Below are positions 30,548-54,705 of a stretch of DNA of 64,000 nucleotides, piece by piece. How positions within the stretch are numbered: position 1 is the stretch's first letter; each line of letters starts with the position of its first letter. The notes under the pieces are model-generated. The model saw nothing but the letters and a program-made list of their open reading frames with translations. It searched no databases and had not been told where the DNA came from. This stretch comes from Eledone cirrhosa. Taxonomy: Eukaryota. The stretch is taken from NCBI GenBank assembly GCA_964016885.1, contig OZ024752.1, positions 24,242,001-24,306,000 of the forward strand, read 5' to 3'. Position numbers and translations under genes: made by a program.

Positions 30548-30945
30548 TAGAAAGTGAGGTTTTTTTTACAAAATGAAAAATAACCGAGGTGTCCTACACG
30601 AGTGGAAGTATAAAGAAAAAGGGATGAAATCGAAAATGCAACTGAAGTCTTATTTTTTTATTTTTTTAAAAATATATATATTTATTTGGTTCCTTTACCG
30701 GTTTCGCAGTTCTTCTGCTTTTCAAAAGGTGAGTTGAGATGGAGGGTCTGTGGTTTTTCTCACATCTGGTTGTTCTCTAAATGTTACTTGTTTTATATGG
30801 AAAAACTGGCTCGAAAACCAGGTTTTTCGAGAAGTAATTTGATTGGTTTGTCAATAATTATAATAAATTTCCCGCCAAATAAATATATATATTTAAAAAA
30901 AAATAAGACTTCAGTTGCATTTTCGATTTCATCCCTTTTTCTTTA
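30548..30945. mobile_element. Non-autonomous pLTR-like island with ~75-bp inverted arms
   Basis: 30611-30689 is the reverse complement of 30875-30945. The island is embedded in (TA)n and contains a hammerhead motif. Confidence 0.7.
30692..30729 (-). ncRNA. Minimal type-I hammerhead ribozyme motif, U3-A8 variant
   Basis: CCUU-UUGAAAA-GCAG agaa-loop CUGC-GAAA-CCGG-UA/AAGG, with palindromic stem III CCGG. Confidence 0.75.
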
Positions 30946-31084
30946 TATATATATATATATATATATATATATATATATATATATATATATATATATATAT
31001 ATATATATATATATATATATATAAAAGACGTAAAATAAGAAAATTAAAAAAAAATTTTTTTAAATTAACTTACTAAAATTTTCA

Positions 31085-31164
31085 CTCCAACTAATTAGTT
31101 TCTGCAATGGTATAAAGACAGTTACGTAATGAACTGTTGAGAATTTCATTGCGTCATCAGGGAG
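31085..31164 (-). ncRNA. Type-I hammerhead motif with enlarged stem II
   Basis: CUCC-CUGAUGA-C GCAAUG...CAUUGC A-GAAA-CUAAUUAG-UU/GGAG. Confidence 0.78.
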
Positions 31165-32111
31165 GTCTATTCTCAGCCAAGTCTCCAGGCAATGCGCGGA
31201 CACTGGGGACTCATATAAAAATAATAATAATTCGGTAAATGGAACAGCTATCGGGGACTGGATTCCAAGTACTGAAAATCTCGCTGCCACTGGTCAAATG
31301 GCCGATTCTAAAGAATCAATGAGGTGACACTGAGGCTAGTCGGTAGGAGTGGGATGGTAAGATGACAGACGCCTACTAACACACCAAAAATTTAGTAGTG
31401 GTTTTGGCAGGTTTGCTCGACAAATCAGTGATTTGGAGATAAATATAGATAATTTAATATATCTACTAACATAAGCGCACAGATGTACGCTAATGCCAGC
31501 AAATACACAGGTTATGTCATAGTACCTAGGTGGTTCAATGCAGGAGGATGCAGAACAATAATATAATAGACGTAAAATAAGAATGAAATTCTCAACAGTT
31601 CATTACGTAACTGTCTTTATCCCATTGCAGAAACTAATTAGTTGGAGTGAAAATTTAAGTAAGTTAATTCTTTAACATTTTTAAAAAAAATTTTCTTACT
31701 TTACGTCTTTTATATTATTGTTCTGCATCCTCCTGCATTGAACCACCTAGGTACTATGACATAACCTGTGTATTTGCTGGCATTAGCGTACATCTGTGCG
31801 CTTATGTTAGTAGATATATTAAATTATCTATATTTATCTCCAAATCACTGATTTGTCGAGCAAACCTGCCAAAACCACTACTAAATTTTTGGTGTGTTAG
31901 TAGGCGTCTGTCATCTTACCATCCCACTCCTACCGACTAGCCTCAGTGTCACGTCATTGATTCTTTAGAATCGGCCATTTGACCAGTGGCAGCGAGATTT
32001 TCAGTACTTGGAATCCAGTCCCCGATAGCTGTTCCATTTACCGAATTATTATTATTTTTATATGAGTCCCCAGTGTCCGCGCATTGCCTGGAGACTTGGC
32101 TGAAAATAGAC

Positions 32112-32191
32112 CTCCCTGATGACGCAATGAAATTCTCAACAGTTCATTACGTAACTGTCTTTATCCCATTGCAGAAACTAATTGGTTGGAG
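32112..32191 (+). ncRNA. Type-I hammerhead motif with enlarged stem II
   Basis: CUCC-CUGAUGA-C GCAAUG...CAUUGC A-GAAA-CUAAUUGG-UU/GGAG. Confidence 0.75.
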
Positions 32192-32476
32192 TGAAAATTT
32201 TAGTAAGTAAGTTAATTTTTAAAAACTTTTTTTAAATTTTCTTATTTTACGTCTTTTATATTATTGTTCTGCATCCTCCTGCATTGAACCACCTAGGTAC
32301 TATGACATAACCTGTGTATTTGCTGGCATTAGCGTACATCTGTGCGCTTATGTTAGTAGATATATTAAATTATCTCTCTCTCTCTCTCTCTCTCTCTATA
32401 TATATATATATATATATATATATACTAGCATATATATATATATATATATATATATATATATATATATATATATATA

Positions 32477-51182: not shown

Positions 51183-51442
51183 CAAATTTACAAATATATA
51201 TATATATATATATATATATATATATATATATATATATATATATATATATATATATATATATATATATATATATATATATATATATACATATATATATATA
51301 TATATATATATACATTTATATATATATATAGAGAGAGAGAAAATTGAGGTTGGTAATGGCACATGGAATATATAAGAGACAGAATACTTTTTTGTGAAAA
51401 AACATATAATTTTATAAGGTAAGGAAATAATAAAGGGTATAA

Positions 51443-51490
51443 AAAATGACCGGTTTCGATGGGTCTGCAAAAGCCATCTTTTCAAATGTT
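51443..51490 (-). ncRNA. pLTR hammerhead motif, U3-A8 variant
   Basis: UUGAAAA-GAUGG cuuuugcagac CCAUC-GAAA-CCGG-UC, with a weak stem I (AACAU/AUUUU). Confidence 0.7.
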
Positions 51491-52686
51491 GATTAATATT
51501 AAGAAAAATTAATAATACGAAGAGTTAAAATTTGAGATTTGAAAATTCAAGTATAAAATTCATTGTGGGATTTCATAGTAGTTTTCATCTAGGTAGCAAC
51601 AACAGGTTGACTGCTGTGTCCCTTTCTGGTAGTGAATGAGAAGTTATTTGGGGTGTGGGTTATTTTATAAAGGTCAGATTTAGCAATGGCCAACTGGCCA
51701 GCTGCTGGTCAGTGAAGGGGTGGAAGCAATATACATACACATATCTTCCTGTGGTGGGTAGGAGAGTGGAGCGTGATAGAAAGGGATTTAGTGCACTTAC
51801 ACCTATATATACACACATACCTTCATCCACACATACATACATATACATATACATATACATATACATATATATATATATATATATATACATATACACACAT
51901 ACATACACACACACATACATATACATACACACATACACACACACATATATACACATACACACACACATATATATATATATATACACACACACACATACAT
52001 ATACATACACATACATCCAGATACACACATACATACACACACACACACACACATATATATACACACACATATATATATATATATATACACACACACACAC
52101 CCACACATACATACACACACACACACATATATATACATACACACATACAAACATACACACACACACACACACACATATATATACACATACACACACATAT
52201 ATACACACACACACACACGCATATATATATATATATATACACATACATCCAGATACACACATACATACACACACACACACGCACACACAATACATACATC
52301 CACATGCACACACATACACACATACACATATACACATACATACACCCACACACACAGAGAAATGGCCTCCAAATATATATATATATACATACAGACACAT
52401 ATATTTTTTCCATAATATAAGAAGTTGGGACAGTGAAATTAAAATACAAGTCATTCTGATCACGTTGAGTTCTTCATGTAGATTGGGCCCCGCAACCGAC
52501 AGTGGTGAATTCTGTGTGCGCATATATATATAGATATATGTGTGTGCACGTGCAGGGTTTAACATGGATGTGTTGGTCACACAAAGGCATGGTCTGTCAA
52601 CGAATAAACCTGATTCTACAGAATTGGTCTCTGGTCTTTAATAGTAGTGATTCCGTGCGTATGTGTGTTTATATTTTATGACAATT

Positions 52687-54040
52687 CTATTGGGGTGATA
52701 ACCCGTTTAGTTTTGGTTTAAATTTGTTAAGGAATAGATTTTCTTTGTTTATTCTTTGTTGCTGTGTGAACGAATCTGAGCACTTGTAGAAGGGGAAGAT
52801 TTTAAAGTTGGGTAGTGTCATTCCTGCGCAGTTCGCAATATGGCTGCTCAAGGGGATTTTTCTTGTGTTAGCGTCCCGGATTTGTTGGCGGTGGATGGTC
52901 ATTCTTTTGCGTAATGAGGTGCCCGTCTGTCCTATGTAGTTGTGTTTGCACCCACCGCAAGTTATTGCGTAAATCAAGTTCTCCGAGTTGCAGGTGAAAT
53001 TGTTTTTTACTGTAAATGTTTGGCCATCTTTGAATGTAAATGTTTGTCCTTCAGTGAGGTAGAGGCAAGTTCCACAGTTTGTTCTACCACATTTGGTAAC
53101 TGTAGGGTTGAGGATTGGTTTGGGTATATTTGGTCCAGTGAGAATGCGTTTAAGTGATTTGGGTTGTCTTTTACTTTTAAGGATCTTGTGTGTTTCAAGA
53201 ATAGACTTCATTTTTACATCTTTAAGTAGGATGGGGAGGTTTTTGTGTAGGTGATCAAACATTTCGGTATTTCTTGGGTTGAAAGTGGATACATATGGCA
53301 GGGTGTTGAGTGTGGTTTTCTGTTTTGGATTGTTAAGTTGATGGGGATTTAGGTGTTTTGCCCTGTCTATTCCATTGTTGATTATTTCAAGTGGAAAGGC
53401 TCTTAAGATAAGGGTGTCTTTTAGTTCCTTTAGTCTTTGCTCCCGTTTAGGTGGATCTGATACTATGGTACATATACGTTTGGCCAAATTGTAAGGAATG
53501 TTAAGTTTTGTATGTTTTGGGTGACTTGATGTGAAAAAGAGGTATTGCTTGGAATCTGTGGGTTTATAGAATATATCTGTATCTAATTTCCCGTCTATTA
53601 CAGAGATGAGAATATCCAAGAAGGCTAATTCCTTAGGATTGGATTCCATTGTGAATTGTATGTTATTATCTATGTTGTTTATCATGTTTTTAAACGTAGT
53701 AAGTGAGTTCATGTCTTCTTGCCATAGGATAAAGCAGTCATCTAGATATCTTTTCCAATTGGCTTTGAGGTGTGTGTGGAAAGAGTCTCCAAATAAGAGA
53801 AGGGACTGACTGTATATTTGTTGTTCATGGAATCCCATGACTAGGTTGGCATATGTGGGTGCTACATTCGTGCCCATTGCCGTACCTGATACTTGTCTGT
53901 ATGTTGAACCATTGAATGTGAAGTAGTTATTTTGTAGGATAAAGCGGAGTCCGTCAGTGATAAAATCTGTGTTGATGCGTGTCGGTATTTCTGATGGGTG
54001 TGTGTTAAGCCAGTATTGGACTGCTGTTATTCCATAGTTG
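52687..54040 (-). CDS. PLE reverse transcriptase (C-terminal half) + GIY-YIG endonuclease, 5'-truncated, uninterrupted
   Basis: GTAMGTNVAPTYANL, WKRYLDDCF, AFLDI, YKPT, the linker knuckle CGRTNCGTC, and NLIYAITCGGCKHNYIGQTG..RMTIH. The N-terminal ~110 aa of the listed ORF is microsatellite read-through. Confidence 0.93.
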
Positions 54041-54656
54041 TGATGTGTATATGTGTGTGTGTATGTATGTGTGTGCATGTGGATGTATGCATTGTGTGTG
54101 CGTGTGTGTGTGTGTATGTATGTGTGTATCTGGATGTATGTGTATGTATATGCATGTGTGTGTGTGTATATATATATATATGTGTGTGTATGTGTATATA
54201 TATGTGTGTGTGTGTATGTGTGTATGTATATGTATGTGTGTGTGTATGTATGTGTGTGTATGTATATATATATATATATATATGTATATGTATATGTATA
54301 TGTATATGTATGTATGTGTGGATGAAGGTATGTGTGTATATATAGGTGTAAGTGCACTAAATCCCTTTCTATCACGCTCCACTCTCCTACCCACCACAGG
54401 AAGATATGTGTATGTATATTGCTTCCACCCCCTCACTGACCAGCAGCTGGCCAGTTGGCCATTGCTAAATCTGACCTTTATAAAATAACCCACACCCCAA
54501 ATAACTTCTCATTCACTACCAGAAAGGGACACAGCAGTCAACCTGTTGTTGCTACCTAGATGAAAACTACTATGAAATCCCACAATGAATTTTATACTTG
54601 AATTTTCAAATCTCAAATTTTATCTCTTCGTATTATTAATTTTTCTTAATATTAAT

Positions 54657-54705
54657 CAACACTTGAAAAGATGGCTTTTGCAGACCCATCGAAACCGGTC
54701 ATTTT
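54657..54705 (+). ncRNA. pLTR hammerhead motif, U3-A8 variant (inverted copy)
   Basis: Same core as 51443-51490. Confidence 0.68.

Follow-up and report, generated by a model that had tools for sequence, protein, structure and literature searches.

Minimal hammerhead ribozymes are known from metazoan Penelope-like elements (PLEs). The Cercyon elements of Schistosoma carry a U3-A8 pair in the catalytic core in about 1,300 matches, versus about 2,000 with C3-G8 (Cervera and de la Peña 2014, PMC4209133), and U3-A8 is a natural compensatory variant that was active in vitro by an earlier study (Perreault 2011, PMC3088659). In vitro, PLE insertion was unimpaired by mutants of the hammerhead ribozyme (PMC11167929), and the need of PLE hammerheads for transposition is treated as an open question in PMC8557442 and PMC11167929. 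PMC2837043 and PMC3907566 were also drawn on. Here we analyze hammerhead motifs with U3-A8 cores in a 64,000-nt stretch of the Eledone cirrhosa genome (contig OZ024752.1 of assembly GCA_964016885.1, positions 24,242,001 to 24,306,000), referred to below as the window, and their relatives in the 3.0 Gb of genome searched. U3-A8 in PLE hammerheads is already published; the scale here is larger. A literature search, mainly of open-access sources, found no paper on these motifs in cephalopods.

The motifs fall into families A (at 30692), B (36915/37473), C (51443/54657) and A′ (39135). We consider it probable, at about 0.7, that they are type I hammerheads residing in the 3′ pseudo-long terminal repeats (pLTRs) of Neptune-type PLEs (A, A′ and C) and in a 591-nt repeat (B), that their U3-A8 core was inherited and copied by retrotransposition, and that they would cleave weakly, as dimers. 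Judged by sequence comparison, the U3-A8 core appears to be inherited within one Neptune-type clade and to be present in at least two tandem repeats.

The five motifs of families A, B and C that a sequence-only reading of the window had reported are present where it placed them. All combine a UUGA(A/U)AA 5′ core with GAAA, U-H17 and an open-ended stem I, which is type I geometry; their identity as hammerheads is supported. Each of the three families has the core Y3-UGAN-R8-A, GAAA and U16.1-H17 with a Watson-Crick 3-8 pair, a paired stem II closed by G10.1-C11.1, and a palindromic helix III that permits dimers. In family A, stem I CCUU/AAGG flanks UUGAAAA, stem II GCAG/CUGC with a 5-nt loop, GAA, the palindrome ACCGGU and A17. 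Both arms of family B have stem I UCCUC/GAGGA, UUGAUAA, a branched 58-nt stem II (2 bp, a bulge, 4 bp and an inner hairpin), GAA, the palindrome ACUACGUAGU and C17, and family C has UUGAAAA, stem II GAUGG/CCAUC, GAA, ACCGGU and C17. Helix I is 4 bp long in A and 5 bp in B; in C it has two contiguous pairs at 51448 and none at 54663, where U2.1 is C. Because the two family B motifs lie in the arms of one inverted repeat (36464-37109/37368-38013) and the two family C motifs in those of another (51336-52053/54095-54812), the five motifs represent three independent sequences. Five C3-G8 hammerheads also lie within the window, so U3-A8 is not the sole core there. A relaxed scan of the window recovered two of the five motifs and a separate scan all five; in 20 block shuffles the relaxed scan gave 0.2 U3-A8 and 0 C3-G8 matches per shuffle. 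Hammerheads were absent among the 150 listed of 153 Rfam matches to the window at E ≤ 1, a null that is not informative for such minimal variants.

Family A, whose motif has 11,820 copies in the genome, is a coding element, with a single 775-aa open reading frame (ORF) in which a reverse transcriptase (RT) is followed by a C-terminal GIY-YIG endonuclease (RVT_1, 27 bits, below the cut-off of 29.6; GIY-YIG, 28.1 bits, above its cut-off). The family A endonuclease, used as a query, gave at least 150 scored matches at 97–100% identity, many of them inside an open 775-aa frame. The motif lies about 1.05 kb downstream on the same strand in 29 of the 30 loci picked in this way and in all 15 regions fetched around a 775-aa ORF; when loci were picked by the motif, one in 30 extended far enough upstream (1 kb) to include a GIY-YIG fragment. 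An open 775-aa frame is present in at least 15 loci, and family A is therefore young; its copies differ by a median of 2% upstream (28 of 30 loci usable), a figure lowered by the choice of best protein matches. The copy in the window consists of the last 330 nt of this element plus a short inverted tail; over 361 nt it is 97% identical to the 3′-terminal part of the intact element at locus L130. That locus holds two identical 775-aa ORFs 3,912 nt apart, each preceded by an inverted pLTR copy, an arrangement that reads as a duplicated whole insertion. The motif at 30692 thus belongs not to a non-coding island, as first proposed, but to a separate coding family, in a 3′ end left by truncation.

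The kinship of this motif to the coding Neptune-like element of the window, family C, was correctly anticipated: the pLTRs are homologous, and the proteins of A and C share 58% amino-acid identity. A third coding family, A′, is 56% identical to A and 54% to C. Across the motif, the pLTRs of A and A′ align at 75% over 122 nt, and those of C and a further family, D, at 72% over 130 nt. CX2-5CxxC linkers are present in all three families (CGRSNCGTC, CGRTNCGTC and CDRRDCGIC). A CCHH motif, with two Cys inside GIY-YIG and two His, is found in A and C, and the A′ copy at L183 is without the second Cys. GIY-YIG was detected in C, and the RT and GIY-YIG of A′ were assigned by homology. A longer family C copy, with one stop in frame, lies in L099. 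The three families share the pLTR, 5′ truncation with an inverted copy, an optional tail and a microsatellite target.

Neptune PLEs as described in PMC8557442 have the same order of RT, CX4CxxC linker and C-terminal GIY-YIG with CCHH, as well as 5′ truncation, an inverted 5′ copy, an optional tail and (TA)n targets, and DreriNep1 and XtropNep4, two Neptune rows of its supplement, have the RT motif G(T/A)AMG..AP.YAN found here; the assignment of A, A′ and C to Neptune was made by features and motif match, not by an RT tree. Other PLE-like RT fragments, at L099:1-1660 (+) and in L057, have different motif-4 sequences, which points to more PLE clades in the genome. As in the metazoan PLE hammerheads of PMC4209133, the motifs occupy the pLTR and have a palindromic helix III, G10.1-C11.1 and a short helix I; they also occur as opposite-strand pairs 100–700 nt apart but mostly as solitary truncated copies, and they show U3-A8 covariation. 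Unlike Cercyon, they have a Neptune-type host, number about 29,000 U3-A8 copies versus about 1,300, and include a 4,452-copy family with C13. Their helix II has 4–5 bp, in contrast to the Schistosoma type with 7–8 bp and an unpaired base after A9, which is lacking here, and it resembles the variants with a small palindromic helix III in that paper. The motif lies about 1.05–1.2 kb downstream of the stop codon and about 150 nt short of the element's 3′ terminus, whereas in Anolis Poseidon it lies over the ORF start (PMC11167929). A search pattern restricted to CUGANGA overlooks some 29,000 motifs of this genome.

Table 1. Hammerhead motifs and their host insertions in the window.
Feature	Position	Strand	Description
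5′-truncated family A insertion	30549..30947	-	3′ pLTR end (to 30877) and inverted tail copy (30875-30947), in (TA)n
Family A type I hammerhead motif	30692..30729	-	U3-A8 core, ACCGGU palindrome, A17
Family B insertion	36676..37801	.	Within (TA)n; 1.2 repeat units of 591 nt on - (36676-37371), fused to 0.7 unit on + (37368-37801)
Family B hammerhead motif, inverted arm	36915..37004	-	U3-A8, 58-nt stem II domain, 10-nt palindrome, C17
Family B hammerhead motif, second arm	37473..37562	+	Identical to the 36915..37004 arm
5′-truncated 3′ end of family A′ PLE	38677..39288	+	81% identical to the 3′ end in L175 (663 nt aligned)
Family A′ hammerhead-like motif	39134..39171	+	U3-A8 (U3 at 39138), family-wide C13 (39159), private G5A (39140), stem II GCAU/AUGC
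Whole family C insertion	51336..54812	.	718-nt inverted arms
Family C hammerhead motif in 3′ pLTR	51443..51490	-	U3-A8, ACCGGU, C17, weak stem I
5′-truncated family C ORF remnant (449 aa)	52687..54036	-	C-terminal part of RT, CX4CxxC linker, GIY-YIG
Family C hammerhead motif in inverted pLTR copy	54657..54705	+	U2.1 -> C

Family B has 4,273 genome matches and forms head-to-tail arrays of two to five units at a spacing of 590–595 nt, each unit bearing one type I hammerhead. Among the first 100 matches, 99 have U3-A8 and one U3-G8, and the longest Met-initiated ORF of a unit dimer has 75 aa. Non-coding head-to-tail repeats with one type I hammerhead per unit and PLE-like inversions characterize the metazoan retrozymes without long terminal repeats (PMC7229834; bioRxiv 10.64898/2026.07.22.740005), and family B, known here from DNA alone, fits such a non-LTR retrozyme; it differs from typical ones in its 591-nt unit (versus about 300 nt), its U3-A8 pair, its 58-nt stem II domain and its 10-nt palindrome. 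A search of public sequencing runs with family B listed no RNA run as containing it. A second retrozyme-like U3-A8 family is found in L050 (G000:C1:6519946-6521556), where a 316-nt tandem repeat has a U3-A8 hammerhead in each of six units.

The frequency of each 3-8 pair in the genome was determined with the descriptor [3]TGAN[8]AG-N8-38-CGAAACNNGTH and its reversed pattern as control; B, A′ and most C3-G8 families escape this descriptor, which counts the two arms of an inversion separately. It returned 20,524 U3-A8, 9,798 C3-G8, 179 C3-A8 and 186 U3-G8 matches, the control giving 68, 191, 36 and 52, respectively. Mismatched cores amount to 365 of 30,687 (1.2%), far below the roughly 13,500 expected were positions 3 and 8 independent and far below the number of U3-A8 cores, in agreement with the Watson-Crick rule for this pair that the sequence-only reading had put forward. 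The 2:1 ratio of U-A to C-G cannot serve as a census, as one family dominates each side (family A with 81 of the first 100 U-A rows, a single 466–469-nt tandem group with all of the first 100 C-G rows) and the descriptor misses several families. Among 831 kb of fetched loci plus the window, a set biased by having been chosen around our own searches, 12 of the 13 clusters with at least two distinct copies have a Watson-Crick 3-8 pair (five U-A, one of them a doubtful cluster of two, and seven C-G; A and A′ are merged in one cluster and 22 singletons are not counted). The exceptional cluster has a stem II of -0.4 kcal/mol. CCAG/CTGG versions of the CCGG palindrome are frequent in the genome rows, a pattern of CpG decay that suggests that these elements are methylated.

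Most of the mismatched cores listed belong to the large families and have one base changed: by eye, exact family A with C3 accounts for 27 of the first 100 C3-A8 rows, seven of them in one duplicated block, and family A with G8 for 11 of the first 100 U3-G8 rows. A comparison of decay rates, covering family A alone, started from 11,625 genome matches to its exact 29-mer. Freeing the five loop II bases yielded 12,240 matches (+615; 1.06% per site), and freeing U4, G5, A6, A9, A13 and A14 yielded 12,289 (+664; 0.95% per site, an upper bound as one-base slips in the A run also match, although the three variants among the first 100 rows are substitutions). With positions 3, 7 and 8 freed, in a 28-mer that leaves 3 unconstrained, there were 11,820 (+195; 0.56% per site). 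Since the catalytic bases decay as fast as loop II, the rarity of mismatches shows no function of the copies. The proposal that the double change argues for function, not decay, is not sustained, because in family A mismatches are as rare as neutral decay predicts. The evidence for selection lies instead between families, where proteins have diverged by 42–46%, yet the core and palindrome are kept and stem II differs by compensatory pairs (GCAG/CUGC, GCAU/AUGC, GAUGG/CCAUC and GAUG/CAUC); the Watson-Crick 3-8 pair in 12 of the 13 clusters above belongs to the same evidence.

We consider it likely that U3-A8 was fixed once in the ancestor of the clade of A, A′, C and D and was then copied by retrotransposition, and that it was perhaps fixed separately in B. 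The sequence-only reading held that the core is recurrent in three families. Repeated origin by compensatory change, with selection on every occasion, perhaps because slower cleavage spares full-length transcripts, is possible in our view, at clearly lower odds than inheritance. U3-A8 occurs in three architectures, the minimal CCGG form (A, A′, C and D), the long stem II with a 10-nt palindrome (B) and the 316-nt tandem repeat with ACAUGU (six of the first 100 U-A rows), and Schistosoma has it as well (PMC4209133). Apart from simple repeats, sequence comparison shows no resemblance of the B unit to A, A′ or C, and a C3-G8 family of the window, at 31089/34028, has the same build as B. On the other hand, A, A′, C and D are homologous, so that A and C, with A′ and D, count as one clade with one inherited core and only B may be a separate origin. 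A C3-G8 core with the CCGG loop has two genome matches, neither from A, C or D (control, 140), in a test of low power, as about 0.2 would be expected from two independent transitions. In addition, an AT-rich genome with a C>T/G>A bias would favor U-A without selection.

As to mechanism, two copies in a tandem transcript would pair through the palindromic stem III, and cleavage after N17 would trim or circularize the element RNA, possibly helped by the element's protein, as the literature leads us to suppose. For family B, cleavage would give 591-nt monomers, which might be copied by a PLE reverse transcriptase in trans. Selection would have acted on the few source elements, not on the genomic copies. 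The palindromic stem III, the tandem or inverted layout and the (TA)n targets are all observed. In two-copy co-folds, which use short fragments and a nearest-neighbor model, the energy minimum for B is the hammerhead dimer; for A the dimer comes within 1.4 kcal/mol of the minimum, a fold with an added U3-A17 pair. For the U3-A8 core we predict weak cleavage that requires a dimer.

Several points weigh against inheritance with weak dimer cleavage. In the same co-folds, the dimer lies above the predicted minimum by 16.2 kcal/mol in C, 13.4 in D and 9.4 in A′, and a U3-A17 pair that extends stem I into the core is possible in A, A′ and most D copies. Among double changes in this region of a type III hammerhead, the G3-C8 swap alone restored activity, the others being low (PMC9901934), by analogy with which U3-A8 may be nearly inactive in some contexts; PLE minimal hammerheads cleave weakly in vitro (PMC4209133), which speaks against strong activity. 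The single origin is argued from homology and parsimony, and no C3-G8 coding family was found to serve as an outgroup. Coding partners were not found for D in the six loci examined or for B among 30 loci. A 32-aa endonuclease match in L056 was considered as the partner of D and rejected, as it sits upstream of an A′ motif. The endonuclease match in L035/L094 lies on the opposite strand from the C3-G8 motif and was not assigned.

Some of these observations would also suit the view that the U3-A8 motifs of the Neptune clade are non-cleaving relics, retained through descent or as a structure that binds protein close to the start of reverse transcription, which we consider unlikely. Stem I is weak and competing folds are predicted in C, D and A′, the alternative U3-A17 pair is analogous to the C3-G17 alternative of PMC3884650, and Naiad PLEs, which lack canonical hammerheads, attain high copy numbers (PMC8557442). 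Family A′ amplified despite C13. Against relics, the families diverged by 42–46% keep U4, G5, A6, A9, G12, A14, A15.1, U16.1, G10.1-C11.1 and the palindrome while stem II and the flanks change, and only A′ departs from this kept core, at one base.

Family A′ has 4,452 genome matches. All of its first 100 copies have U3-A8, and position 13 is C in 98 of them, A in one and G in one, so that A′ lacks the canonical A13 of GAAA; on these features it is best classed as hammerhead-derived, not as a canonical hammerhead. C13 is derived, because A, C and D have A13. A register with C inserted after G12 was rejected, since it would place C-G at 15.1-16.1 and since A and A′ are equally long. The description of 39135-39171 as a decayed relative stands for G5A at 39140, the sole change private to the window copy, and fails for C13, which is fixed across the family. 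Three public runs, X1 and X4 of organism A and X6 of organism C from a separate study, have G at 39140, and in none of them does 39159 show a C-to-A row at the 5% level; X5 barely covers either position, and the assembly may derive from X1. Upstream, A′ copies show a median difference of 6% (19 of 30 loci usable), which, with subfamily differences in the flanks, indicates that several source elements carried C13. A full-length open frame was absent from all 12 A′ regions fetched, and the family may for this reason be dying.

The likelier reading of these data is that A′ spread with a dead or weak ribozyme, which agrees with the in vitro insertion of PLEs whose hammerheads were mutated (PMC11167929) and with the success of the Naiads (PMC8557442). 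Fixation of C13 in an amplified family argues against cleavage being required for spread; cleavage is likely useful yet dispensable for these elements. We find it rather improbable that C13 is a tolerated or compensating core, with C13-A17 replacing A13-C17, and that A′ still cleaves. A′ keeps all other core bases, stem II and the palindrome despite its upstream divergence, positions 13 and 17 pair (PMC7092961), and C13 is the majority base also in runs under a second organism label. However, family A combines A13 with A17, so accommodating A17 did not require C13; core substitutions reportedly reduce activity 10- to 1000-fold (PMC7092961), stem I of A′ is all A-U, its predicted dimer is disfavored by the energy given above, and none of the 12 regions has a full-length frame. 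Slightly more doubtful still is an active core in which C13-A17, as the counterpart of A13-C17, is combined with U3-A8 and kept by selection in thousands of copies; were it true, such a core would escape every ribozyme search based on GAAA. The variants given in the text of Perreault 2011 (PMC3088659) are A6C, A6a, U13a and U15.1-A16.1, with no C13 substitution among them, and no C13 hammerhead family was found in the mainly open-access literature searched, although figures or supplements of PMC4209133 and PMC3088659 might hold such variants. The pair A/A′ is useful in this respect. Of these sister coding families, A has a full core along with numerous intact ORFs and A′ has thousands of C13 copies, and the contrast represents either a natural spread without cleavage or a new tolerated core.

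That AT-rich repeats gave rise to the motifs by chance or through faulty assembly, as a window rich in simple repeats and fold-back structures might suggest, is refuted by a 300-fold excess over the control pattern, a fixed position relative to PLE ORFs and the presence of the A′ sequence with C13 in independent public runs.

The hammerhead set of this genome is unusually varied. In the window, motifs at 31089-31160 (-), 32116-32187 (+), 34028-34098 (-) and 34566-34636 (+) constitute two related C3-G8 families, each an inverted pair. Their stem II domain measures 50 nt and their palindrome 10 nt, and they have the build of family B without sequence similarity to it. A minimal C3-G8 hammerhead with an ACUAGU palindrome lies at 61286-61316 (-) and has 13 distinct copies among the fetched loci. 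L040-L042 (G000:C1:5738326-5752444) contain about 31 units of a 466-nt C3-G8 retrozyme-like repeat that ends in an inversion, and about 15 more C3-G8 hammerhead families, with stem III palindromes of 6–12 nt, are found in the fetched loci.

The remainder of the window contains several unrelated elements. An open array of C2H2 zinc fingers at 1-1368 (-) runs off the window start. The segments at 6201-9583 (-) and 10195-11107 are presumably Helitron-like Rep/helicase fragments with an adjoining tandem coding repeat. ORFs of non-LTR retrotransposons occur at 2196-4949, 45728-47727 and 61452-63335 (+), at 43912-45423 and 57520-60658 (+), and at 17606-19708 (-); we take them to be RTE-like, CR1/L2-like and, in one case, an element with a restriction-like endonuclease. 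Between 20865 and 30557, a CCA-rich degenerate tandem repeat of about 10 kb contains long Pro/His-rich open frames.

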